Virus record (IMG/VR): IMGVR_UViG_3300036861_000477 | Reading direction: 5' to 3' (one strand) | DNA: 64,000 nucleotides | From: a virus | Shown here: in pieces, positions 4,877-57,866 of the stretch | Position numbering within the stretch: the first letter of the stretch is position 1 | Layout of the letters: each line of letters starts with the position of its first letter | Notes under the pieces: generated by a model | Database searches by the model: none | Told to the model about the DNA's origin: nothing | Seen by the model: the letters and a program-made list of their open reading frames with translations, nothing else | Program-made: the position numbers and the translations under genes

Positions 4877-5320
4877 CTACCGCTGCGGGCCAATGCGCGC
4901 GGCACTAAGCGCGTCGACGAGAAACGGGTTGGGGCGCATACCCTTAACGGACTTCGTGTAGATAAATCGCTTAGTGCCCTTGGGTCGGAAGCGTAGGTAT
5001 CGCTTCGTGCGCGGTACGATGCGTCGGTGCTTAGGTCCGTAGAGTCCCGTGCCGTCGTGCACGAAGATCGCGTACTCCACATTCGTCCCGATACGCACGA
5101 CGAGCGTCTCACGTCGGCGAAGTTCCACCGCAACGGAGGCGCGAAGTAGTCCCGTGTCAACGCGCTTAGGTCCCGAGTGCCCACCACCGAGGTTCTTTCG
5201 CGCCTGTGCCTGAACTCGGAAGCCTCGCACCAGTAGTGCCCTCGCTACGGGTCCCGTCGAGCTCGTGAGAATCCGGTTGATCTCGGCCTGGTTCAACTTA
5301 TGCGAGATCGTGGATGCCAC
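4877..5320 (-). CDS. HK97 gp10-like neck/tail-completion protein
   Basis: Basic protein with VDTGLLRAS, IGTNVEYAIFVHDGT and GMRPNPFL motifs. Confidence 0.75.
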   Translation of the reverse strand: MASTISHKLNQAEINRILTSSTGPVARALLVRGFRVQAQARKNLGGGHSGPKRVDTGLLRASVAVELRRRETLVVRIGTNVEYAIFVHDGTGLYGPKHRRIVPRTKRYLRFRPKGTKRFIYTKSVKGMRPNPFLVDALSAARIGPQR

Positions 5321-5321
5321 A

Positions 5322-5858
5322 TTAACCGCCGGTGATGTTGAGCCAGAAGACGATCGCTACCTCACCACATGCACCGTTGATCTGGTAATCGGTCGCACCG
5401 ACACGCCAGTCGTCGATAAGACCGTTCGCTTCCATGTCGCCTAGGCAGCAGACGAGACTCTCACGCATGTAGAACTCTTCCACGAGTTGGTAGCGAAGTG
5501 CCGCTGCCTGCTGGGCCATCGTGGGTGGTTCACCACTGGACTTGGGCGATGGGTGGTACTCACAGCGTGTCAACGACACGACGCAACGAAGTGCACTCGG
5601 GCCCACAAAGCAGTGAGGACTTACCGTGTCCTCAACGTTCTCACTTGGGAAGCGACTGGATGGGTACGGTCCGTGCTGGACGGTGACGGCGAGTTGCCCA
5701 CAGTCACAACCGTCCCACGCGACCTCGGGTGCGGGTACGGGACCAACTCGCGCCGGCCGACCCAGCGTGCCGTTCATCACGTTGTCCTGCAGCTCGGTGG
5801 CAAGGCACTCGGCGACACCTGTGAGCGCGGCAAAGTACGTGAGCTGTGTGAGGATCAT
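5322..5858 (-). CDS. Putative tail terminator / head-tail connector
   Basis: Synteny; Cys-rich EVAWDGCDCGQLAV motif typical of cluster-B-like connectors. Confidence 0.55.
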   Translation of the reverse strand: MILTQLTYFAALTGVAECLATELQDNVMNGTLGRPARVGPVPAPEVAWDGCDCGQLAVTVQHGPYPSSRFPSENVEDTVSPHCFVGPSALRCVVSLTRCEYHPSPKSSGEPPTMAQQAAALRYQLVEEFYMRESLVCCLGDMEANGLIDDWRVGATDYQINGACGEVAIVFWLNITGG

Positions 5859-6676
5859 GTGATCGTCGTTCCCGTCACTCGTGAGTCCGGCGCGTCGAGA
5901 TCATACACACGCGCACGCGCCATCAACCCGTGTGGGTTGTAGCGTGTGATAAACTTATCCACGTACTTGAGGTTCTCGAACCCAGACTTAAGCGCGTCCT
6001 CCGCCGACTCGAACGTCAGTGACAATCCTTGTCGTGTCATCTCGGTGAGGTTCGACGGCAGGTCACAGTCACTGCCTAAGATGTCACTGACGATCTCGCA
6101 GAAGAGCTGTCCCACCGCGAGTTTGCCTAGTGTGGGAAGTGGCTCTCCGTAGATCGCGGTGACCGACCACGTACCGACCTGCGTGATGTCCTTGCTGAGG
6201 TCGTTGCACCACGGCCACAACAGGTTATTCAGGCGCACGAGCTTGCGATAGTCGTCCAGCCGGTAGTCCGACCCGCTGACGAGAACGTTGCCATCTAGCG
6301 TCACCTGCACGATGTGCTGGACGGGTCCGGGCAAGATCACCTCATCGATGATCGTGCACGAGCAGCCAGAGCCACACGCTCCGCAGACGATGTTGTACCA
6401 CAGGCCGTTAATCAGTGCCGGTCGCGGACCACCGCCGCCGTACTCCCACCAACCGTTGCTAAGGGCCGGCCAGCTCGCCCCAGAGCATCCCGCGCGGCAT
6501 GGCCGTAGCGTAACCTGGCAAGAGTCGAACCGCTGCGCGGAGGCGTAGTAGATGATCTCACTCGCGGCCTCGAGCGCGTAGCCCGTGATCGCTGCCGACT
6601 CGATCGGAAGCGTGCACATGCTGATGTAGTCATACGGACGGCACGGTCCCGGCCGGTAGAAGTCGTCATCAGCCAT
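5855..6676 (-). CDS. Head-to-tail adaptor
   Basis: Synteny; VTLRPC, YRLDD..LVR, WP.C.D and RQG motifs of the actinophage adaptor family. Confidence 0.65.
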   Translation of the reverse strand: MADDDFYRPGPCRPYDYISMCTLPIESAAITGYALEAASEIIYYASAQRFDSCQVTLRPCRAGCSGASWPALSNGWWEYGGGGPRPALINGLWYNIVCGACGSGCSCTIIDEVILPGPVQHIVQVTLDGNVLVSGSDYRLDDYRKLVRLNNLLWPWCNDLSKDITQVGTWSVTAIYGEPLPTLGKLAVGQLFCEIVSDILGSDCDLPSNLTEMTRQGLSLTFESAEDALKSGFENLKYVDKFITRYNPHGLMARARVYDLDAPDSRVTGTTIT

Positions 6677-36030: not shown

Positions 36031-36995
36031 TGTTGATAATTTGTGAAGGTCCGGATGCGGCAGGTAAGTCGACGCTCGTTAGTCAGCTTCACGACGTCAT
36101 CACCCAGCGATACCCAACGTGGAAGGTCGAGGTACTCCACAAGGGACCACCCGCACCCGACGCTCATCCACTGGACGAGTACGAGCTTCCGCTCTTGTCG
36201 TACCGGCCGGGCCGCGAGCATGTGATCATCTGTGACCGCTGGCACATTGGTGAGTGGGTTTATCCGTTCATTCTCAAGCGAAAGACCCACGCGGACCGTG
36301 CGGTGTGGTATCACATCGAGCTGTTCCTCCAGTCACGGGGCGCGATCATCGTGCACCTTGGTGCCGATCCATCGGAGATCACACGCCGGCTCACCGAGCG
36401 TGGTGATGACCTCGTCTACCCGCACCAGGCAACGGCACTGGTCAACGGCTACGCGAATATGCGGCAGCATCACACGGTGAACTCGATCTACGCAACGCTC
36501 GGTGTCACGCCCGACTACATCGTGGATCAAGCCGTGATCACCGCTGTGCAGGCCGAACGACTCAACGAGTTCACCACGTACATTGGTGATCCTGTGCCAA
36601 GCACGATGCTTATGGGTGACGTGCGCAACGGCCTCGACCTATCGGACGAGTTCGTGAACGCGCGCGCTGATCTACGACCCGCGTTCATGCCGTACAAGGG
36701 CACGTCGGGGCACTACCTCTTTAGCTCACTCAAGCCCGAGCAGTTCCGCACCCTAGGTGTCGCGAACGCGTGTGACGTGGACAACATCGAGCGCATGCAC
36801 GCGATGCTCCACTTCCCATCTAGTGCGGCACTGGGAGTCAACGCCCAGCGGGCAACCGACTTCATGGCCGAGGTCAACGGCGTGCCTCATCCGCAGTTCA
36901 TCCGGCGGTTTCACAACAAGGCGGGACGACAGTACGCGCAGGCCATCGAGCGCACGCTCGTGGACGGAGAGGACAACAGCCAGTGGCGACCCTAA
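36030..36995 (+). CDS. dNMP (thymidylate-like) kinase fused to a UDG-superfamily-like domain
   Basis: EGPDAAGKST P-loop and CDRWH; C-terminal GD, PAF.P..GTSG..L, ALG..A and PHP motifs. Confidence 0.75.
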   Translation: MLIICEGPDAAGKSTLVSQLHDVITQRYPTWKVEVLHKGPPAPDAHPLDEYELPLLSYRPGREHVIICDRWHIGEWVYPFILKRKTHADRAVWYHIELFLQSRGAIIVHLGADPSEITRRLTERGDDLVYPHQATALVNGYANMRQHHTVNSIYATLGVTPDYIVDQAVITAVQAERLNEFTTYIGDPVPSTMLMGDVRNGLDLSDEFVNARADLRPAFMPYKGTSGHYLFSSLKPEQFRTLGVANACDVDNIERMHAMLHFPSSAALGVNAQRATDFMAEVNGVPHPQFIRRFHNKAGRQYAQAIERTLVDGEDNSQWRP

Positions 36996-37846
36996 TCACC
37001 GGTGCGAGTGGCATCGACGTGTATCGCCGACTTGTGAACTACGTGCTCGCCGGTGGTGATCGCCGGAACCCACGTGGTCTCGCGACGAACGACCTGGGCT
37101 ACACCACCGTGGAGCTCGATTCGCCCTACAACGCTCTTCCACTGGGTCTGGGTCGCAACCTCTCACGGCGCATCGCCGCGGCGGAGGCGGTGCAGCTCAT
37201 CGGAGCGTTCGCCGACCCGCAACTTCTCCTCGACGCGTCGCCCAACTTCAAGAACTACGTGGAGGACGACGGCACGTTCTGGGGTGCTTACGGTCGGCGC
37301 ATCGGAACCCAGCTGCGCGAGGCGTGCACCAAGCTCAGCCAGGACCACAGCACGCGCCAGGCCTTGATCACGCTATGGGATCCAATGCTGGACAACCAGC
37401 CGCACAAGCGTGACTACCCGTGCACGATGCTTCTGGGCTTCAGCTTTAGCCCGACGGGACTTCTCGAGCTCGACGTCACCATGCGATCCAACGACGTGTG
37501 GAAGGGATTTCCCTACGACATCTTCCAGTTCACGCAGCTGCAGCTCACCGTGGCTCGGCTGCTGAAGGTCGAACCGGGGCGCTATCGTCACCACACGTAC
37601 TCACTTCACATCTATGAGAGCGACGCACTGGCCGCCGCCGAGTTCATCCGGCGAAGTGATGTCGCACACACGGAGGAGCAACCGACGGGCTTCGGCGCGC
37701 CGGGCGATAACCTACTCACCATCCAGCAGCGAGCACGAACGGTTGCATATGCAACTACCGCTACGTCGTCCACCGACTCCGAGCGCTGGTACTGGCACGT
37801 TCTGCGTGGTGGCAAGCCTCAGCTCACCCTGGTGGATCCGCAGTGA
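36983..37846 (+). CDS. Thymidylate-synthase-family enzyme, predicted dCMP hydroxymethylase
   Basis: Catalytic PC; MRSNDVWKGFPYD places Asp at the position of E. coli ThyA Asn177; SLHIY. Confidence 0.8.
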   Translation: MATLITGASGIDVYRRLVNYVLAGGDRRNPRGLATNDLGYTTVELDSPYNALPLGLGRNLSRRIAAAEAVQLIGAFADPQLLLDASPNFKNYVEDDGTFWGAYGRRIGTQLREACTKLSQDHSTRQALITLWDPMLDNQPHKRDYPCTMLLGFSFSPTGLLELDVTMRSNDVWKGFPYDIFQFTQLQLTVARLLKVEPGRYRHHTYSLHIYESDALAAAEFIRRSDVAHTEEQPTGFGAPGDNLLTIQQRARTVAYATTATSSTDSERWYWHVLRGGKPQLTLVDPQ

Positions 37847-45693: not shown

Positions 45694-47040
45694 GTGGGAC
45701 GCAACATTCTCTACGGCAAGCTTGGGCGAAGCATGCCTCTCACACTGGAAAAGTGTGGAACCCTCGGCGGTGACATCGAGATGTCGGCCGTCTTGACCCT
45801 ACTAGCGAACAGGTATCCCGACGATCGGATCATCCTTATCGGCCGCAACTCCGGTGAGGATCCCCGAGCGATCGGCCTGCCGGCGAACGTGTACAACCCG
45901 TGGCACGTGTTCGGTGATGATGTTCGACGAGACCTCAAGCAGCTCGGGTTCAAGGGCAACATGACCCCCACCGAGCAGCATCGCTACGGTGACGTGATCG
46001 ACAAGTACACGCTGCCGTACTTTCACGCGGCCGATGCGATCGTCATGTGGGTGGGCCAGCACGGCACGTCCAACCATCCACTCCCCAAGGTCGAGGATCG
46101 TTCGGTCTGGACGAAGCCGCAGGATGCGTTCGCCCACTACGCCGGATTCATCCTCCGCGGCATCAATGAGTGGCGCGAGATCAACCCGCTCGAGCGTGAG
46201 GAGATCTGGCTCAACGCCGACCCGCGCAACTACCACAAGATGCGCGACCTCAAGTGGCCACTTCGTCACCCGATCCTCACGCAGTACAACTTCACGCACG
46301 CGATCAAGCACGAGCGCTACGAGGACACGATTCCGCCAGGAATACTGGGTTTTGAGCACTACGCGAAGGCCGTGAACGGCGTTTGGGAGTCCACGACCAG
46401 CAACGTGTACTCACGCCTCGAGCTCAATGCACTCGTGCCGGGCACGCCCAGTGGCGACCTGCTCTCGTACAACAACTCGTGGGAGGGACGCGAGCCGTTC
46501 GGTCTCGTGATCAACGAGGCACGCGCGATCGGTCTGCCACAGCGTAAGACGCGGCTCCAGATCATGCACGACTGGGTAATGCCGCTTAACCCACACTTCA
46601 TCCACGGCACGTGGTCGAACGAGGCCATGGGAAGTCTTCAGGGCCGCTGGGGCATCAAGAAGATTACTTCACTTCCGTGGCACTTCTACACCGCTACGAT
46701 GCACCGTGTTCTCTCTACGTTCACGACACCGTCCAGTGGTTCCGGCTGGGCGACGACGAAACCGTGGGAGGCGTTCGGACTCGGCGTGGTTTGCTTCTTC
46801 CATCCGGACTACGACGACCAGGACAACATCCTGCGTGATGCTCCGAGGGATCTGCACGAGTGGCTTCGCCCGCGAACCCCAGGTGACCTCGCGAAGCGCG
46901 TGCGACACCTGAGCACCCCCGCAGGCCGGTCCGACTGGGAGGCTCTCGTCGCACTCCAGTACGATCACTTCCGCAAGAACGTCGACGATCCACTGTTTAT
47001 GTCATACATTAACTACCGCTTGGAGGGTTCTTACTCGTGA
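45694..47040 (+). CDS. GT-B glycosyltransferase resembling T4 DNA beta-glucosyltransferase
   Basis: C-terminal WATTKPWEAFGLGVVCFFHPDYD...GDLAKRVRHL...LVALQYDHF parallels recalled T4 BGT FITLRVWETMASDAVMLIDEEFD...AELIDRVNEL...MLSIQHDIL. Confidence 0.65.
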   Translation: MGRNILYGKLGRSMPLTLEKCGTLGGDIEMSAVLTLLANRYPDDRIILIGRNSGEDPRAIGLPANVYNPWHVFGDDVRRDLKQLGFKGNMTPTEQHRYGDVIDKYTLPYFHAADAIVMWVGQHGTSNHPLPKVEDRSVWTKPQDAFAHYAGFILRGINEWREINPLEREEIWLNADPRNYHKMRDLKWPLRHPILTQYNFTHAIKHERYEDTIPPGILGFEHYAKAVNGVWESTTSNVYSRLELNALVPGTPSGDLLSYNNSWEGREPFGLVINEARAIGLPQRKTRLQIMHDWVMPLNPHFIHGTWSNEAMGSLQGRWGIKKITSLPWHFYTATMHRVLSTFTTPSSGSGWATTKPWEAFGLGVVCFFHPDYDDQDNILRDAPRDLHEWLRPRTPGDLAKRVRHLSTPAGRSDWEALVALQYDHFRKNVDDPLFMSYINYRLEGSYS

Positions 47041-48101
47041 AGACCGCTGTCATCATGCCGACCATTCGTGTGCCGCAGAACATCGCGGCGTGGATGGCGC
47101 TGCTCGACCCCGAGACCGACGTGGTCATCATCGCCGGCAACGCGAAGTCTCCGCACGTCGACATTCTCGACCGCCTCGACGAGTTCGCCGTGCCGTCGAT
47201 CTACCTACACCCGGAGCAGATGAAGCCCTGGGCAATCGATGAGTTCATGGAGCCGAACCACACGCATCGGCGCAACTTCGCACTCCTCGAGGCGATCAAG
47301 TTTCAGCCGGACGTGCTCGTCACCATCGATGACGACAACTTCCCGTACATGTCGACGTGGCTTCAGGGCGTGAAAGCCTTGCTCACGGAACCGAACCGCC
47401 GGCCGCTGATCTTCTCGGCGAACGGGTGGTGGAACCCGGGTAACATCTGCTCACCCCGGGTGCTCCACCGTGGGTTCCCCCTCAAGCACCGCGATGAGCA
47501 GACCACCGTCGAGTTGCAGGCCGACAACGAACGGATCGGCGTCGTCGCGAGTCTCTGGCTCGGTGATCCGGACATCAACGCGTTCGAGCGCATCTACAAT
47601 GACCCGCAGGTGCAGCACGTCAACGGATCGGTGACGCTCGGCAAGGGCGTGTGGGCACCGTTCGACTCGCAGTCAACGGCGCTTGCCGGCGAACTCGCGC
47701 CTCTTCTCTACATGTGGCCCGGTGTCGGACGGTATGACGACATCTGGTCATCATACGTCGCACGTGCGGTGATGGACTTGACCGGCTGGTACGTCACGTA
47801 CGGCCACCCCACGGTGATCCAAACGCGTAACCCGCACAACCTTATCCGTGACCTCAAGGACGAGCTCTACGGGTATGAGCACACCGAAGAGCTGTGCGAC
47901 AACCTCCGCGGCATCGTTGAAGACATGGGCACCACGGGACAGCTCCGGCAGCCGTCGGTACTGCAGGTGTTCACGGAGGTTACAGAACGACTCTGGGACA
48001 TCAAGGTAATCCCGTATCGCACCCGTGAGAGCTTCATGGCGTGGCTCGAGGACCTCCAGACCCTGCACACCTACGGTAACCTTAAGGAGGGCACAGTCTG
48101 A
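47037..48101 (+). CDS. RGP/GT75-like protein (UDP-arabinopyranose mutase-like, GT-A fold)
   Basis: PTIR, TIDDD, RGFP, LWLGDPD and GRYDDIW match recalled plant RGP motifs PTIR, TIDDD, RGYP, LWLNIPD and GRYDDMW. Confidence 0.7.
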   Translation: MKTAVIMPTIRVPQNIAAWMALLDPETDVVIIAGNAKSPHVDILDRLDEFAVPSIYLHPEQMKPWAIDEFMEPNHTHRRNFALLEAIKFQPDVLVTIDDDNFPYMSTWLQGVKALLTEPNRRPLIFSANGWWNPGNICSPRVLHRGFPLKHRDEQTTVELQADNERIGVVASLWLGDPDINAFERIYNDPQVQHVNGSVTLGKGVWAPFDSQSTALAGELAPLLYMWPGVGRYDDIWSSYVARAVMDLTGWYVTYGHPTVIQTRNPHNLIRDLKDELYGYEHTEELCDNLRGIVEDMGTTGQLRQPSVLQVFTEVTERLWDIKVIPYRTRESFMAWLEDLQTLHTYGNLKEGTV

Positions 48102-48583
48102 TGGACCGCCTTGCGGGCATGCTCAACAAGCAGTCATTGCTGCAGTCGAGCACGTACAAGAATCACATCGAGTTCATGACCGATGAAGAGCGCGTCGAGT
48201 TCATCCGCATGAATGTGCTCGCGCTCACCGACGAGCTTCACGAGGCTCTTGCCGAGACCGGCTGGAAGCCGTGGGCCACCAGTAAGCACGTCAACGATGA
48301 AGCGTACTTCGGTGAGCTCGTCGACGCGTGGCACTTCCTCATGAATCTCATGCTCGCCGTGGGCGCGAACCCGTCGGACGTCGCGACCATGCTCTACGAG
48401 CGCTACACCGACAAGCACAACATCAACATCCAGCGGCAGGTTGACGGCTACGACGGTGTCTCCACGAAGTGCCCGGGTTGCGGTCGAGCACTCGACGATG
48501 ATGCGGTGAAGTGCTTCGTGTATCCACTCGGTGCAGACGCGTGGTGTGATACGAACCACAAGAACATTCGCCTCAAAGGTTGA
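48101..48583 (+). CDS. All-alpha dNTP pyrophosphatase (dCTPase/dUTPase type)
   Basis: DELHEAL...GWKPW and GELVDAWHFLMNL. Confidence 0.8.
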   Translation: MDRLAGMLNKQSLLQSSTYKNHIEFMTDEERVEFIRMNVLALTDELHEALAETGWKPWATSKHVNDEAYFGELVDAWHFLMNLMLAVGANPSDVATMLYERYTDKHNINIQRQVDGYDGVSTKCPGCGRALDDDAVKCFVYPLGADAWCDTNHKNIRLKG

Positions 48584-48596
48584 TAAGGTTCGATCC

Positions 48597-50126
48597 ATGC
48601 GTGCGGTTGATGTTCTCGGGTTTGCCGGCGGATTTACACTCGGTACGGTTCAGGCGGGCTTTGAGCTTGTCGGCAAGCGTGAGATGAAGGGCGGTTTTGG
48701 TGTCGCGAACTGCGAGGCCAACCGCCATCTTCTCGGGTACGGCTGGAAGTCCGAAGCGTGCGATCAGGCGGACTGGTCGCCGGTCGATGCAGAGGTGGTC
48801 TTCGGTAACCCTCCCTGTTCGGGCTTCAGTGTGATGTCCGCAAAGGAATTTCGTGGAGCGGATTCGAAGATCAATCATTGCATGTGGGCCTTCGCCGACT
48901 ACGTCATTAAGGTGAAACCCCTGATCGCGGTCTTCGAGTCCGTCCAGCCGGCTCGCACGCGACCCGACGGACATGCCCTCATGCGTCGCCTGCGTGATCA
49001 CGTCGAAGCGGGAACGGGTCTCAAGTACACCCTCCACCACGTGCTCCACAACGCCTACTCCATCGGCGGCTGTGCCCAGCGTCGGCGTTACTTCTGGGTC
49101 ATCTCACAGATGCCCTTTGGAATCGAACCTCCCAAGCACGACCGCTACCCAACCCTACTCGACGCGATCGGCGACCTCAGAGGACTTCAGAACACCTGGA
49201 GTTCCCAGCCCTATATCGAACAACCGAGCTGGTGGGCGGAGGACCGTCGAAGTGGCTCAGACCAGGTAGATGGGCATGCTAGCATCGACAACCCGTTGAC
49301 CGGACGGATTCGTGACCTGATCGTCGGTGCTGGCTGGAAAGAACGAGAGCATATTGCCCTCGTCGCAAAGCGGCACTACACCCAGCACGGGAAGCTGCCG
49401 GACTCGTGGCGAGACACCGAAGCGAAGCTCGTCAAGCAGGACTTTTTCATGGGATTCACCACTCCGGTGCGCTGGCCAGGGGATGAGGCCGCACGCGTCA
49501 TCACGGGTGGTGGACTTGTGATGGTCGTTCATCCCACCGAAGATCGTACGATCACACACCGTGAGGCAGCACGCATCCTCGGTTTTCCGGATGACTGGCT
49601 GATCGAACCACTTCGTGGTGTGCCCGGCCTGGGTATGACGTGGGGCAAGGGCATCACGGTCGACTGCGGTCAGTGGATCGCCGACTGGATCAAGCGCGCA
49701 CTTGAGGGAGATCCCGGGTACTACGTGGGCGTGCCGATCGGTGAGCGCGAGTTTGACATCGATGTCACCAGTGCGTGGAAGGGCTCCTGGTATAGTAAGA
49801 CAAGTCGCACCACCCTTACGAAAGTGTCATCTACGAGAGGAACCACCATGACGGAGCCGGAGACCCCCGAGGTCACCGAGACCAAGGCCGGCCGGCCGCG
49901 TTCGACCCAGACGCTCGAGCGCGACGAGAAGGTTTTCGAGATCCTGTCCACCGGCGCGAAGACCCGAGTCGCCGTCGGCGAGGTGCTCGGTGCCACTCCC
50001 GCGGAAGCCTACCTCAGCCTCGATCGCCTGCGGACCGCCGGCCGCGCAAAGTCCGAACGGCGCGACGGCAAGTTCGTCTGGTTCCGGCCGGACGTGCCGG
50101 AGCCCGAGCCGGTCGCTGCCGAGTAA
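48597..50126 (+). CDS. Atypical DNA cytosine-C5 methyltransferase with in-frame C-terminal winged-helix
   Basis: GNPPCSGFS, VFESV, QRRRYF and REAARILGFP; motifs I and X are degenerate. Confidence 0.8.
   Translation: MRAVDVLGFAGGFTLGTVQAGFELVGKREMKGGFGVANCEANRHLLGYGWKSEACDQADWSPVDAEVVFGNPPCSGFSVMSAKEFRGADSKINHCMWAFADYVIKVKPLIAVFESVQPARTRPDGHALMRRLRDHVEAGTGLKYTLHHVLHNAYSIGGCAQRRRYFWVISQMPFGIEPPKHDRYPTLLDAIGDLRGLQNTWSSQPYIEQPSWWAEDRRSGSDQVDGHASIDNPLTGRIRDLIVGAGWKEREHIALVAKRHYTQHGKLPDSWRDTEAKLVKQDFFMGFTTPVRWPGDEAARVITGGGLVMVVHPTEDRTITHREAARILGFPDDWLIEPLRGVPGLGMTWGKGITVDCGQWIADWIKRALEGDPGYYVGVPIGEREFDIDVTSAWKGSWYSKTSRTTLTKVSSTRGTTMTEPETPEVTETKAGRPRSTQTLERDEKVFEILSTGAKTRVAVGEVLGATPAEAYLSLDRLRTAGRAKSERRDGKFVWFRPDVPEPEPVAAE
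49848..50126 (+). CDS. Nested in-frame winged-helix protein (likely also made separately)
   Basis: GAGAGG RBS and ATG 49848 inside the MTase frame; TG-G-TATAGT at 49788-96. Confidence 0.55.
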   Translation: MTEPETPEVTETKAGRPRSTQTLERDEKVFEILSTGAKTRVAVGEVLGATPAEAYLSLDRLRTAGRAKSERRDGKFVWFRPDVPEPEPVAAE

Positions 50127-54208: not shown

Positions 54209-55285
54209 TTAGCGAGTGTTCTGAAGCCCTAGCGGGTTCTTGTGCACGGACTTACCCGCTTCAGCCCATGCTTCCGCCCAGCGCCACGCGTTGTCCTCAA
54301 TCGTGAGGCGTTCACGCACGATCTGACGATCGCGCTCGCTCTCCTCCTGCCGACGGCGCCAGTTCGTCGCTAGATCGGTCACGATGCGTGTCCACTGGAC
54401 GTGGCTCTTGGCAATGTTGCCGATGCCGTACTGCCGCTGAAGCTTCACGTACTCGACACGTTCGGACGAAACACTGGGTACGCCCAGCGCCGCATACTCG
54501 AGAGGCTTGAGCCACGACTTCGCGGAGTTGAAACGAGTGTCCGCCGTGGGTGCAAGTCCCACGCCCACTTGGTTGAGCGCCGCCGGCCACTCGTGGAAAT
54601 CCACCCCACCGGTAACACTGACAAGTGGTGTAATGACAGATCCCAGCGCGTCGATGACGCCCAGGTGGGGTCCCACGATGCGAAAGTGAATGCCCGCACG
54701 GATCCACTTCGGAAGCGAGCGACTCAATTCCTGCACGTCCTGTGGGTGCGTCTGGATCGCGCCACCCCACGCGACGATCGCGCTATCGTGATGCTCGTAC
54801 TGCGTGAATTGCTTCGGTACGAAGTTCGGCAGCACCACACTCTTACTGCCATACACCTTCTGCAACGCCGGTGTCGACACGGTGACCAGCGTTGCGGCAC
54901 GACACGTGTCGACCACGTTCTGCCACGAGTGATCACGCTGCCCGGTGGTCGGGTGAAGCATCCGCCACGCGGGATGCAGCGGATCGATCGCCGATAGATC
55001 ATCATCCATGTCGATAATGACGGCGATGCCCTTCTTCTGTATGAGCTTCACTGCCTGTGTGAGGTAGCGATGCGTCGTTCGCTGGAGCACGATCACGTCC
55101 GCGTCGGGTGGCACCTGGATGTCCACCATCGTGTCGCGCACCATACTCGCCTTGAACTGCTCACGCTGACTCTTCGGACTTATGATCACCACATCGTGGC
55201 CCTGGGCCTTAAGTGCGAGAGCGGGCCAGATGAGCCGATAGTAGCCGCAGCCGGTGATATCCGCGGGATACACGTACACCTTCAC
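54209..55285 (-). CDS. GT-B (GT4-like) glycosyltransferase
   Basis: GCGYYRL, DMDDD and KSWLKPLEYAALGVP. Confidence 0.85.
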   Translation of the reverse strand: MKVYVYPADITGCGYYRLIWPALALKAQGHDVVIISPKSQREQFKASMVRDTMVDIQVPPDADVIVLQRTTHRYLTQAVKLIQKKGIAVIIDMDDDLSAIDPLHPAWRMLHPTTGQRDHSWQNVVDTCRAATLVTVSTPALQKVYGSKSVVLPNFVPKQFTQYEHHDSAIVAWGGAIQTHPQDVQELSRSLPKWIRAGIHFRIVGPHLGVIDALGSVITPLVSVTGGVDFHEWPAALNQVGVGLAPTADTRFNSAKSWLKPLEYAALGVPSVSSERVEYVKLQRQYGIGNIAKSHVQWTRIVTDLATNWRRRQEESERDRQIVRERLTIEDNAWRWAEAWAEAGKSVHKNPLGLQNTR

Positions 55286-55512
55286 TGCATTTCCTCCGCG
55301 GCTTCTTCCATGTACCACTTCCACCAGTTACGTGCGTACACGTAACCGTAGGCGAACGCGGAGATGATAAAACCCCACTGACGCGTGTACAGACCGTAGG
55401 CGACCCAGAGAATCTGTGCGAGGAAGTTGATCATCCAGCCGATCTTCAAGCGTGATCCGGCGAGTAAGAGACCCGTGACGCCAATGCCCGCGAGTACGAA
55501 CGACCAGATCAT
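55282..55512 (-). CDS. Small PnuC-like membrane protein
   Basis: Two to three TM segments; GW....Q.LW..Y......G pattern. Confidence 0.55.
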   Translation of the reverse strand: MIWSFVLAGIGVTGLLLAGSRLKIGWMINFLAQILWVAYGLYTRQWGFIISAFAYGYVYARNWWKWYMEEAAEEMQ

Positions 55513-55516
55513 GTCA

Positions 55517-56092
55517 TCACCACTTCGTGGGAAGACCACTGGTGTTGCCCTGGTGATGGCACCAGAACCACGTCCGCTCGACGAGGTGTGAAATCTTCGC
55601 GCCGGCCTCAATGCAACCCAGTGTGAAGAACCGGTCCTCACCCGAGTTGATGTTGTGCCCGCGGTTCAGCGCTTGGAAGCCGACCTGCTTCGCGAGCTCC
55701 GTTCGGACGAGTGTGGTGATCGTCGTCTCGATCGGGTTCGCTGGATCGAACGGTTCGGTGAAGTGTGTGGAAGGGAACGGGTCGCCACCGCCGAGCATCT
55801 CGAACCACGAGTACACGAAGTCCGCCTCGGTCTCTAACGCATGCGCCAGCAGACGCTCGAGATGCTGAGTCTTGAACATGTCGTCGTCATCAAGGAACGC
55901 GACCCAGGGCGTGGTAACCGCGTCCAGAGCTCTCTGTCGCGTGGCCGCGGCACCTTCCCGATGGGTATCAACGGCGATGGAGATCGCGGCCGCGGGAAGA
56001 GTCTGACGGGCGACACTGCCGATGGCTCGTTCCAGCAGGTGCGGACGAACGGGGATGGACGGGATGACCACCGTGATGTCATTCTCTGTCAT
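55517..56092 (-). CDS. GT2 glycosyltransferase
   Basis: ITVVIP, GAAATRQ and VAFLDDDD. Confidence 0.85.
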   Translation of the reverse strand: MTENDITVVIPSIPVRPHLLERAIGSVARQTLPAAAISIAVDTHREGAAATRQRALDAVTTPWVAFLDDDDMFKTQHLERLLAHALETEADFVYSWFEMLGGGDPFPSTHFTEPFDPANPIETTITTLVRTELAKQVGFQALNRGHNINSGEDRFFTLGCIEAGAKISHLVERTWFWCHHQGNTSGLPTKW

Positions 56093-56104
56093 AGTGCTAC
56101 TCTA

Positions 56105-56749
56105 TCACCACGGAGGTTGACCCCACTTCTCAACGAAAGCTACACGGTCGCGCCCCGCCTGCTGGGCAAGTTCAGCGGTGGTCGTGCTGTTCGGGTAAAG
56201 ATGTTGAATCTTCAACCCTCCAACCAACACGGCACCCCCCTTCTGGCGTGCCTGGTACTCGATGTCATTGTCCCCGTACCACCAGACGAAGCGTTCGTCC
56301 GCCATGATACCGGCCTTGCCGCTAAGTGCGAACGCGAAACCACTCATCCGCAAGCCGTCACGCACGGGCCACGTGAGTGCGTAGTCCGCGTTGAGCCCGT
56401 ACACATCGGGAAATGCTGCCACGACGTTGTACTGCCCGATCGCGGTCGCAAGCCGCTGGACGAACTGTGGCGGCACGATCACATCATCATTCAGCACTGC
56501 GACGACGTAGTCACCTGAAAAGTTCTCGGACGCGGCCACGTAGCCCAGGCCCACGTTCCACCAGAACGAGATGTTCAAGCGATCCACGAAGCGGATGATG
56601 TGTACTCGATCCGTCTCGGCGAAGTCGAGTCGAGGTTCATAGCCCGTGTCCACGATGACGACGTTCACATCATCATTAAGAAGTCGTGCGACGAGAGCAA
56701 AGAGCTCGGTACGACGTTCTTTCGAGGGAATCACTGCCCAGAGTTTCAC
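56105..56749 (-). CDS. GT2 glycosyltransferase
   Basis: WAVIP, WN.G, VLNDD and WWYGDND. Confidence 0.8.
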   Translation of the reverse strand: MKLWAVIPSKERRTELFALVARLLNDDVNVVIVDTGYEPRLDFAETDRVHIIRFVDRLNISFWWNVGLGYVAASENFSGDYVVAVLNDDVIVPPQFVQRLATAIGQYNVVAAFPDVYGLNADYALTWPVRDGLRMSGFAFALSGKAGIMADERFVWWYGDNDIEYQARQKGGAVLVGGLKIQHLYPNSTTTAELAQQAGRDRVAFVEKWGQPPW

Positions 56750-57312
56750 GGTGTCCTCCCGTGCTTCACATCCCATGATCCGTTGCCCCAGTCACCGAAG
56801 CGGTACTGCCATGTCACCTGACCGGTCTCAGCGAAGCGCGCGCCCTCATCCATGAGTCGGTTCCAGTTGGCCCAGTCAATCCAGCAATGACGGTCAGTCT
56901 TGTCGGTCCAGCGACCGAAGATCTCACGTCGTGCGACCACCGCACTGGGTGGAAACCAGTTCGTGAGGCGCATATCTTCCCAGTTGACGTGCCACGGTTC
57001 GATCGTCCCCGGTGCACGATTCACGAGATCGAACCGTGAGGCGACCACGTCCACATCATTGTTAAACGTGGCAAGACACGCCTCGAGGTGCTGCGGGTAC
57101 CATACATCATCATCGTGTAAGAACGCGACAAGGTCGGTGTTCACCGCATCGAGGAGCCGGTTTTGGTTGGCGACTTCGCCCAGCCGACGAGGATCGATAC
57201 CAATGATGATGTCGTCCGGTTGGCGTGTCTGCTTACGAACGGACTCCAGCGCCTCCTGTAAGAGTTGCTCACGCTCCATAAGAGACACGATGACCACGCC
57301 GATGGTCATCAC
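56746..57312 (-). CDS. GT2 glycosyltransferase
   Basis: ALESVRKQT and VAFLHDDD.W.P.HLE. Confidence 0.85.
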   Translation of the reverse strand: MMTIGVVIVSLMEREQLLQEALESVRKQTRQPDDIIIGIDPRRLGEVANQNRLLDAVNTDLVAFLHDDDVWYPQHLEACLATFNNDVDVVASRFDLVNRAPGTIEPWHVNWEDMRLTNWFPPSAVVARREIFGRWTDKTDRHCWIDWANWNRLMDEGARFAETGQVTWQYRFGDWGNGSWDVKHGRTP

Positions 57313-57866
57313 CGTGAGAGCCTCGGCTCGGGTGAGTTCGGAAAATCACGCTCCGCCGGCAACATCGCGAGCGCGTACACATCGTGTGCTTCGGCGTTGT
57401 ACTCAACCTCGACCGCGTCGAAGTACTTATCCAGCGTCCATCGCAAGTCGTCCGGTGACACGTTGGCATACCACTCACCCGGCGGAACGACGTGATTACC
57501 GCTCGCATCGTGCGCCGGACGCCCAAATGAGGCGCACGTGGAGATGAACACACCTGGACCTGCTGGGTCGAGGTGGTACCACATGGTTTTGATGATGTCC
57601 TGCCAGCGCTCCGCGTGCTCGAACAGTTCGGTGGCAATGACGATATCATACCGTTCATCGGAGCGCCACTCGGCGGCATCGGCGACGATGTCCACATCAG
57701 GCCCCTGGCGCAGATCGAGCCCGGTCCACTTCGTGTTGGGTAGCTCGACGCGAACGGTGCCGTTCACATTGCGACCGCCGACGTCCAGTCCGTTGAGTGG
57801 CGCAAGACGATCGATGCCGGACTTTTCAAGCAGCCGTCGAAATCCCATGTATGCTGCAGCGTGCAC
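57309..57866 (-). CDS. Class I SAM-dependent methyltransferase
   Basis: LDVGG, GLD...G..VDIV.DA and ELFEH. Confidence 0.85.
   Translation of the reverse strand: MHAAAYMGFRRLLEKSGIDRLAPLNGLDVGGRNVNGTVRVELPNTKWTGLDLRQGPDVDIVADAAEWRSDERYDIVIATELFEHAERWQDIIKTMWYHLDPAGPGVFISTCASFGRPAHDASGNHVVPPGEWYANVSPDDLRWTLDKYFDAVEVEYNAEAHDVYALAMLPAERDFPNSPEPRLSR

Follow-up and report, generated by a model that had tools for sequence, protein, structure and literature searches.

As a side reaction, the DNA cytosine-C5 methyltransferase M.HhaI hydroxymethylates DNA without S-adenosylmethionine (SAM) (PMC7176277). Bacterial enzymes of this fold need substitutions in both motif IV and motif X to transfer larger groups, and mouse DNMT3A, which is SAM-dependent, has Arg887 at the position of the motif X Asn (PMC13594970). 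In the phage enzyme SpCmoX, Arg350 contacts the carboxymethyl group, and positions in motifs IV and X set the selectivity for carboxymethyl transfer (PMC12783734). Phage clades of the C5-methyltransferase fold with divergent motifs IX and X showed no methylation in E. coli (PMC8256090). Here we describe a C5 enzyme encoded at positions 48597–50126 (plus strand) of a 64,000-nucleotide stretch of viral DNA, IMG/VR record IMGVR_UViG_3300036861_000477, which was analysed as a whole and is referred to as the window. Its carrier is an uncultured soil phage of high-GC bacteria.

The gene product is predicted to be a DNA-directed C5 enzyme with intact catalytic residues, a distinct and conserved reaction center and a degenerate adenosine site, confined to phages. 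Its family, large and so far uncharacterised, forms a branch of the C5-methyltransferase fold known only from phages and goes by the database label ‘DNA methylase’. Gene content and gene order mark it as a fixed, vertically co-inherited part of a predicted actinophage cytosine-replacement module, composed of a ThyA homologue, a kinase, a deaminase, a MazG/dUTPase and variable glycosyltransferases. The enzyme probably performs an undescribed step of phage DNA modification and is not an ordinary methylase. The reading we favour, with a probability of roughly 0.4, is that of a pathway-integrated, post-replicative cytosine-C5 enzyme that would act on unsubstituted cytosine using non-classical donor chemistry.

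An original prediction, made for this locus from the DNA letters, had proposed a C5-methyltransferase with intact catalytic residues and altered SAM-pocket motifs. Its readings of motifs I, IV, VI, VIII and X are all correct. Two further differences had been overlooked, namely the replacement of the Gln of the motif IV PCQ by Ser and the altered motif II/III block, and the gene is longer than proposed. An end at 49847 had been assigned, where no stop occurs; the frame starts with ATG 48597, is open through 49847 and closes with a TAA ending at 50126, adding 92 residues. In the list of open reading frames (ORFs) and their translations, the whole ORF has 509 amino acids and comprises the C5-methyltransferase-fold core, a linker and a winged-helix domain, and its start matches the N-termini of relatives.

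The catalytic and target-recognition core (residues 1–400; 48597–49796) has the C5-cytosine methyltransferase fold, as judged from PF00145 and from structure prediction. PF00145 matches it end to end (residues 1–365, profile positions 1–322 of 324) with a modest 68.8 bits, and NCBIfam dcm (TIGR00675) gives 42.5 bits, below its cut-off of 100.65. An AlphaFold 2 (AF2) model of residues 1–400 has a predicted local distance difference test (pLDDT) value of 88.5, and its best Foldseek matches are DNMT1/MET1, M.HaeIII, the prophage enzyme 3g7u and M.HhaI (E 1e-19 to 1e-14). The closest PDB sequence is HaeIII, with E 1.5e-9 for the single sequence and 2.7e-10 as a profile. All motifs occur in the order I-IV-VI-VIII-TRD-IX-X, with a large target recognition domain (TRD) between motifs VIII and IX. 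Motif equivalences were taken from HMMER alignments to HaeIII and HhaI together with hhalign profile–profile alignments against five canonical phage Dcm enzymes.

The residues that handle the target base are in place. Motif IV reads G-N-P-P-C-S-G-F-S (residues 70–78; 48804–48830) and supplies the catalytic Cys74, followed by Ser75 where PCQ has Gln. Motif VI is F-E-S-V (residues 113–116; 48933–48944), in which Glu114 is kept and the Asn is replaced by Ser115. Motif VIII, Q-R-R-R-Y-F (residues 161–166; 49077–49094), aligns with the R-K-R of HaeIII and contributes Arg162 and Arg164, and motif IX is T-H-R-E-A-A-R-I-L-G-F-P-D-D-W (49554–49598). In motif X, G-K-G-I (residues 350–353; 49644–49655), Lys351 aligns with the Asn of the HaeIII GNAV, the position of HhaI Asn304, DNMT1 N1580, DNMT3A R887 and SpCmoX R350.

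The adenosine side of the pocket has diverged further. Motif I is the variant L-G-F-A-G-G (48615–48632; V-L-G-F-A-G-G spans residues 6–12), so that Leu7 occupies the canonical Phe position and Phe9 that of the first canonical Gly. The counterpart of the motif II Glu is Glu29. It is followed by a family-specific block, GGFGxxNxxANRxLLGxxW (residues 32–50; 48690–48746), with invariant columns G32, G33, F34, G35, N38, N42, R43, L46 and W50, which stands in place of the variable motif II–III segment lining the adenine pocket. The canonical GDI of motif III was left unaligned by hhalign. HMMER did pair the motif III Asp with Trp50; as hhalign leaves this stretch unaligned, we do not claim a substitution, only that there is no alignable motif III. 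In the five canonical phage Dcm controls all of these features are intact: the Phe and Gly residues of motif I, an acidic residue in motif II, the Asp of motif III and GNAV.

Conservation was counted over 151 cluster representatives. Cys74 is present in 128 of 130, Glu114 in 144 of 145, Arg162 in 145 of 149 and Arg164 in all 149, a conservation near 100% that bears out the proposal of intact catalytic residues. Lys351 is found in 137/144 (Arg in 3), Ser115 in 139/145 and Ser75 in 116/130. The altered pocket motifs of the original prediction are thus fixed family-wide, as K351 and S115 illustrate, and are not a matter of chance. The motif II Glu occurs in 91 of 129 representatives and is otherwise Ser, Gly, Ala or Thr; it is absent from about 30% of clusters and is Ser in the Kurnik clade, where, as in the Sixama clade, the alignment is unambiguous. 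Across the family the canonical motif I Phe position holds Gln, His, Glu, Tyr or Met, and the first Gly is Phe or Leu. Conservation over these representatives indicates that the target-base machinery and the Lys/Ser/Ser trio of the transfer site are strictly constrained and that the positions which hold the SAM adenosine in canonical enzymes and in CmoX are not.

The family is large. A search of 5.8 billion proteins gave 857 matches, an exhaustive profile search of metagenomes gave 207 clusters (50% identity) at E <= 1e-30, and 92 loci in IMG/VR carry it. Cultured carriers include Micrococcus phage Kurnik, the Gordonia phages GMA2, Sixama, GodonK, Phendrix, Forza and others, and Actinomycetia phage DSL-LC01; the cultured members are annotated merely as ‘methyltransferase’. 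Our literature search found no paper on Kurnik, and the GMA2 genome paper lists a ‘putative methylase’ and nothing further on the enzyme. A pattern scan of 185,579 prokaryotic species genomes (one genome per species) returned a single locus, on a 17.5-kb contig of a Coriobacteriia metagenome-assembled genome (MAG); the patterns were strict, so absence here means absence of close relatives only.

Two peculiarities concern the catalytic motif in relatives. In P0225, from a metagenome (5.3-kb contig), a Hint/LAGLIDADG intein lies exactly between the Pro-Pro and the catalytic Cys of motif IV, making that Cys the +1 extein residue. In two IMG/VR loci, L041 and L084, the frame is broken just before the catalytic Pro-Cys (...PPVRPC... 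or truncated), which could be sequencing error or slippage-prone phase variation.

The enzyme is closely tied to genes for 5-hydroxymethylcytosine (5hmC). The window encodes a ThyA homologue (36983–37846, plus strand) that alignment and co-inheritance identify as like deoxycytidylate (dCMP) hydroxymethylase, with Asp at the Asn177 position. A ThyA homologue is co-carried in 29 of 30 long phage records with the C5 enzyme, including all 20 of those that are at least 90% complete. Every ThyA homologue in those records, as well as those of Kurnik and Sixama, carries Asp where E. coli has Asn177 and retains Asp169 and the Pro-Cys nucleophile, and the signature M-R-S-N-D...P-Y-D was found in the window and 31 relatives. 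The best PDB match of the window protein is the CMP hydroxymethylase MilA. It is without D169N, the signature of 5-hydroxy-dCMP synthases (PMC13326640). The Asp177-type ThyA and the MilA match support the earlier premise that C5 of cytosine is already substituted in this genome, which remains a prediction.

The association holds from the opposite direction. A reverse locus search used a narrower ThyA alignment, the first one being too divergent; it located a full-length C5 enzyme in 17 of 25 long contigs, most of the others being fragments, and five of six near-complete genomes were positive. The closest ThyA relatives among cultured phages belong to the same actinophages that carry the C5 enzyme, and pairwise identities of the two proteins are correlated (Mantel r 0.73, 0/2000 permutations). 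Because it is co-inherited with the ThyA homologue, we consider the C5 enzyme a core gene of the lineage and not a mobile accessory. Co-occurrence of GFAGG-type methyltransferases with 5hmC genes, which had been suggested as a check, is therefore strongly positive, both in the 29 of 30 forward records and in the reverse and Mantel analyses.

Gene order is similarly constrained. The start ATG 48597 sits 13 nt past the stop of an upstream partner (48101–48583, plus strand), an all-alpha NTP pyrophosphohydrolase of dUTPase_2/MazG-like type (PF08761, phrog_18650), and the C5 enzyme gene directly follows a pyrophosphatase of this type in 68 of 82 related loci. Whether unmodified cytosine enters phage DNA would depend on this protein being a dCTPase, as T4 gp56 is, or a dUTPase alone. 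It ends in a four-Cys, zinc-ribbon-like C-terminal tail. Further upstream in the same block (45694–48101, plus strand), a Pfam scan delineated two putative glycosylation genes, for a 448-aa protein with no Pfam hit and for an RGP/GT75-like protein, whose counterparts are found upstream in 53/82 and 33/82 of the related loci, respectively. The related loci lie downstream of SNF2, PD-(D/E)XK, Sak4 and DUF669 recombination genes, and Kurnik and Sixama have the same order. In a divergent clade the locus runs deaminase, dUTPase_2, kinase and ThyA, then PrimPol and the C5 enzyme, with no glycosyltransferase near. This clade suggests that the tie is to the supply of hydroxymethylcytosine and not to one particular sugar.

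The sugar genes and kinases around the enzyme vary. Sugar-nucleotide genes are swapped beside it in two relatives (L225, 8889–9995; L005, 8485–9492), with UDP-galactopyranose mutase (GLF) in one and an NAD-dependent epimerase next to the RGP-like gene in the other, which suggests differing furanose or pentose sugars on the same base. A phage without the window’s glycosyltransferases (L086) encodes, at 5125–5904, a P-loop kinase that matches 5-hydroxymethyl-dU DNA kinase weakly and below threshold (PF18748, E 2.6e-4); its gene lies upstream of those for recombination and for the C5 enzyme.

Some family members are extended at the C-terminus by a second enzyme. In five clusters, with contigs of up to 215 kb, this is an FkbM-family methyltransferase domain, in three a UbiG-like Methyltransf_23 domain, and in one protein, encoded on a 5.6-kb contig, the helical domain of 5-hydroxymethyl-dU DNA kinase (HMUDK; E 5e-40). 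The fused members are P0241, P0144, P0238, P0149, P0145/P0271, P0155, P0180, P0200 and P0254, some of them on contigs of 167–215 kb. Their neighbourhoods retain the same module, and one of them has a gene for UDP-galactopyranose mutase directly ahead of the fusion gene. Judged by family name, the fusion partners are enzymes predicted to act on hydroxyl groups. The fixed place at the end of a modification operon, together with these fusions to hydroxyl-modifying domains, leads us to favour a biosynthetic role with a hydroxyl on the product or the substrate.

How such an enzyme might work can be sketched from these features. Cytosine would be flipped out of duplex DNA and Cys74 would attack C6, with productive turnover requiring a hydrogen at C5. 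Given this requirement, the substrate would most likely be cytosine that escaped pre-replicative replacement, that is, residual cytosine of the phage and possibly host DNA. Since a 5-substituted cytosine cannot finish the normal addition–elimination, the productive substrate would be either unmodified cytosine or 5hmC in an exchange reaction. The installed group would not be delivered by classically bound SAM. The specific model that we find most coherent, and to which we give a low probability, is a natural, SAM-independent, post-replicative DNA cytosine-C5 hydroxymethylase on the C5-methyltransferase fold that would turn leftover cytosine into 5hmC. The hydroxymethyl group might then come from a formaldehyde equivalent such as methylene-tetrahydrofolate, Lys351 might serve as acid/base, and the two Ser residues might leave enough space for CH2OH together with a water molecule. 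The hydroxyl of the product would be taken on by the glycosyltransferases or, in relatives, by the fused O-methyltransferase-like or hydroxymethyl-base kinase domains. Such a hydroxymethylase would close the gaps left by nucleotide-level replacement.

Several points weigh against the favoured reading. The Lys351 change on which the original prediction had drawn is real, but it is weaker evidence on SAM than had been assumed: DNMT3A and DNMT3B use SAM with Arg at this position, and a Lys there is by itself no argument that SAM cannot be used. Of the three glycines in motif I, two are still present, and the motif II Glu survives in about 70% of clusters. Beside an enzyme that hydroxymethylates the nucleotide, a second one acting on DNA would seem superfluous. 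The kinase fusion is one protein on a 5.6-kb contig, and the proteins fused to class-I methyltransferases could simply be multi-methylase proteins. Co-inheritance, finally, speaks for core status in the lineage and not for any function.

The chief competitor is an ordinary SAM-dependent C5-methyltransferase with odd motif spelling that would place 5-methylcytosine (5mC) on unsubstituted cytosine, in phage DNA if replacement is partial or in host DNA, and serve anti-restriction or host takeover. We judge it somewhat unlikely but a serious rival. The full-length PF00145 match and the fold are what such an enzyme should have, every catalytic residue is present, motif I retains A-G-G and most members retain the motif II Glu, and DNMT3A demonstrates SAM use with Arg at the same motif X position; moreover, the upstream gene is annotated as a dUTPase and is not a proven dCTPase, so dCTP may persist as a source of substrate. 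The motif I Phe is nevertheless lost family-wide, the motif II acidic residue is missing in about 30% of clusters, motif III is unalignable and the score falls under the NCBIfam dcm cut-off. Unlike Dcm-type enzymes, the family is, by the strict pattern scan, essentially absent from cellular genomes. It is also a single orthologous family whose TRD is conserved and whose position is fixed, whereas anti-restriction methylases are patchy in occurrence and shuffle their specificities, and fusions to O-methyltransferase-like and hydroxymethyl-kinase domains make no sense for a 5mC product. The core of the earlier view, that this is not an ordinary Dcm and belongs with the 5hmC genes, is supported comparatively by the co-occurrence and the degenerate adenosine site. 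Its suggestion of carboxy-SAM as donor fares worse.

A carboxy-SAM route would make the enzyme a Lys-type analogue of CmoX, with a SAM derivative as the donor of a carboxymethyl or another extended, anionic group to C5 of cytosine. Like SpCmoX (R350) and the engineered M.MpeI N374K, the enzyme has a basic residue where HhaI has Asn304, which fits this idea, as does the enlargement of the transferable-group pocket by the Gln to Ser change in motif IV, and fused O-methyltransferase-like domains could esterify a carboxylate. The required partner CmoA (TIGR00740), however, was found in neither Kurnik nor Sixama and in none of 20 complete related phage genomes, and its cut-off was reached in none of 301 sampled genomes from the phylum of the MAG with the relative, a negative that is independent of the two unpublished genomes in the sample (G032 and G257). 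The fused domains of relatives gave no match to CmoA either. The family profile matches SpCmoX (8YF3) at E 0.21 and over the motif IV stretch only, the motif IV reads NPPC instead of SPPC, and the adenosine contacts that CmoX retains (Phe, Glu, Asp) are degenerate. We therefore regard this as the least probable of the explanations considered. Oxidation of 5mC is, more tentatively, disfavoured along with carboxy-SAM because neither TET nor CmoA was found: Tet_JBP (PF12851) was detected in none of the 20 complete related genomes, in a search without a positive control, and in none of the window ORFs scanned. As a maker of some other cofactor, the class-I methyltransferase encoded at 57309–57866 was considered and dropped; used as a protein query, it was found in just 2 of 25 complete genomes. 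The generic PF13489 family is present in 19 of these 25, at distances from the C5 enzyme comparable to that in the window, but it is ubiquitous and lies about 8 kb away on the opposite strand in a glycosyltransferase cluster, and we do not regard it as a specific partner. The FkbM family occurs in 1/25 of the same genomes.

Editing of existing 5hmC would keep the enzyme within the modification pathway. Cys74 would add to C6, Lys351 would help the oxygen on the 5-CH2 to leave as hydroxide or phosphate, and a nucleophile held in the pocket would be coupled to give a hypermodified base. The phage DNA is predicted to be 5hmC-substituted, engineered M.SssI couples thiols to 5hmC (PMC7176277), and a 5-substituent should be accommodated by the smaller Ser residues and the Lys near C5; the single fusion with a hydroxymethyl-base DNA kinase domain and the weak HMUDK-like kinase match in one relative’s locus point the same way. 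That kinase evidence is a singleton plus a sub-threshold match, though, the glycosyltransferases compete for the same hydroxyl, the O-methyltransferase fusions supply no leaving group, and we found no conserved gene for a nucleophile donor. On balance this reading is improbable. More improbable still is a cofactor-less enzyme directed at unmodified host DNA, sparing the 5hmC DNA of the phage, which would deaminate flipped cytosine to uracil with Lys351 protonating C5 or would form tight or covalent roadblocks, in aid of host shut-off or the breakdown of host DNA. C5-methyltransferases deprived of SAM are known to deaminate cytosine, the family has retained its residues for cytosine recognition and nucleophilic attack beside a degenerate adenosine site, and in T4 cytosine-specific functions against host DNA accompany 5hmC. 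No sequence feature points to deamination specifically, however, and the hydroxyl-modifying fusions and the position in a glycosylation operon better suit a biosynthetic role. An RNA target of DNMT2-like type was set aside, since the family tracks ThyA and not tRNA-like genes, has a DNMT1-like DNA TRD and bears a fused DNA-binding domain.

This DNA-binding domain forms the C-terminal part of the window protein. Alignment, the AF2 model and Foldseek define a GRPR (AT-hook-like) motif and a small winged-helix domain at residues 432–497 (49890–50087). The winged helix is modeled as H-b-H-H-hairpin with pLDDT > 90, and its best Foldseek matches are winged helix-turn-helix, Z-alpha and ArsR/MarR domains. 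It is as near to Z-alpha (Z-DNA-binding) domains as to ArsR/MarR, with a template modeling (TM) score of 0.91 by target for PKZ (4kmf). Helix 3 carries an invariant Tyr and the wing a Trp that hardly varies; the domain might recognise an unusual DNA conformation or modified DNA. It is missing from about half of the family, and in some other phages a homologous winged helix is a separate ORF directly downstream. The preceding linker (49797–49889, plus strand) is AT-richer and contains the Shine-Dalgarno-like GAGAGGAA (window 49830–49850) ahead of an internal in-frame ATG at 49848, the point at which the original prediction ended the gene. The C-terminal domain may also be made separately from this ATG.

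Elsewhere in the window, the minus strand of 54209–57866 encodes four glycosyltransferases and a methyltransferase of the Methyltransf_23 type, which may decorate virion proteins or else a DNA sugar. When the locus was compared by megablast with 50,697 phage records, no near-identical genome came up.

Phage hypermodification has supplied new chemistry and tools, and glucosyltransferases, TET enzymes and CmoX-type carboxymethylases are in use in epigenome sequencing. If the present enzyme does install or exchange a hydroxymethyl-type group, no natural enzyme before it would have exploited side reactions of the M.HhaI type, the textbook T4-style 5hmC pathway would gain a post-replicative step, and direct, sequence-programmable writing of 5hmC would come within reach. 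If it is a plain methylase, then 5hmC phages of Actinobacteria keep a second cytosine modification, and the spelling of motifs I–III is far more plastic than assumed. The cultured relatives (Gordonia phages Sixama, GMA2, GodonK and Phendrix; Micrococcus phage Kurnik) make the question directly testable.

Compared with M.HaeIII and M.HhaI (PF00145), the family has the same fold, motif order, Pro-Cys, motif VI Glu, Arg-x-Arg, motif IX helix of the TxRExARxQGFPDxF type and large TRD. It differs in the loss of the motif I Phe, in Phe or Leu at the first Gly, in a dispensable motif II Glu and an unalignable motif III, in the changes PCQ to PCS, ENV to ESV and GNAV to GKG(I/V), and in a score below the dcm cut-off, and it is phage-only and tied to a dCMP-hydroxymethylase homologue. 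DNMT3A and DNMT3B share with it a basic motif X residue where HhaI and DNMT1 have Asn; they differ in having canonical motifs I–III and using SAM, and they are not among the sequence matches. SpCmoX, the C5-carboxymethyltransferase of Synechococcus phage S-B43 (8YF3), and M.MpeI N374K likewise combine the C5-methyltransferase fold with a basic residue at the Asn304 position, and SpCmoX is also a phage enzyme that serves hypermodification instead of plain methylation. The present family nevertheless has Lys where SpCmoX has Arg and NPPC for SPPC, no CmoA partner was found in the genomes searched, the adenosine contacts are unconserved, and its members co-occur with the Asp-type ThyA and not with CmoA/CmoY.

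In the chemistry proposed, the family resembles the SAM-independent reactions of M.HhaI and M.SssI, addition of aldehydes to give 5hmC and coupling of thiols to 5hmC. Those are laboratory side reactions of SAM enzymes, and we know of no natural enzyme dedicated to them. Phage modules of a C5-methyltransferase with TET/5mYOX and glycosyltransferases also cluster a gene of this fold with glycosyltransferases, and some of their methyltransferase clades likewise have divergent motifs IX and X, with no methylation shown (PMC8256090). In the present lineage the hydroxymethyl group would come instead from a ThyA homologue, before replication, and the search of 20 genomes, made without a positive control, gave no Tet_JBP match. 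The 5hmC pathway of T4 (gp42 dCMP hydroxymethylase, gp1 kinase, gp56 dCTPase, Cd deaminase and glucosyltransferases) has the same parts as the module described here, in which an Asp177-type ThyA is accompanied by a kinase, a deaminase, an all-alpha NTP pyrophosphatase and a glycosyltransferase. T4 has no component with the C5-methyltransferase fold, whereas the present lineage adds one as a fixed fifth part.

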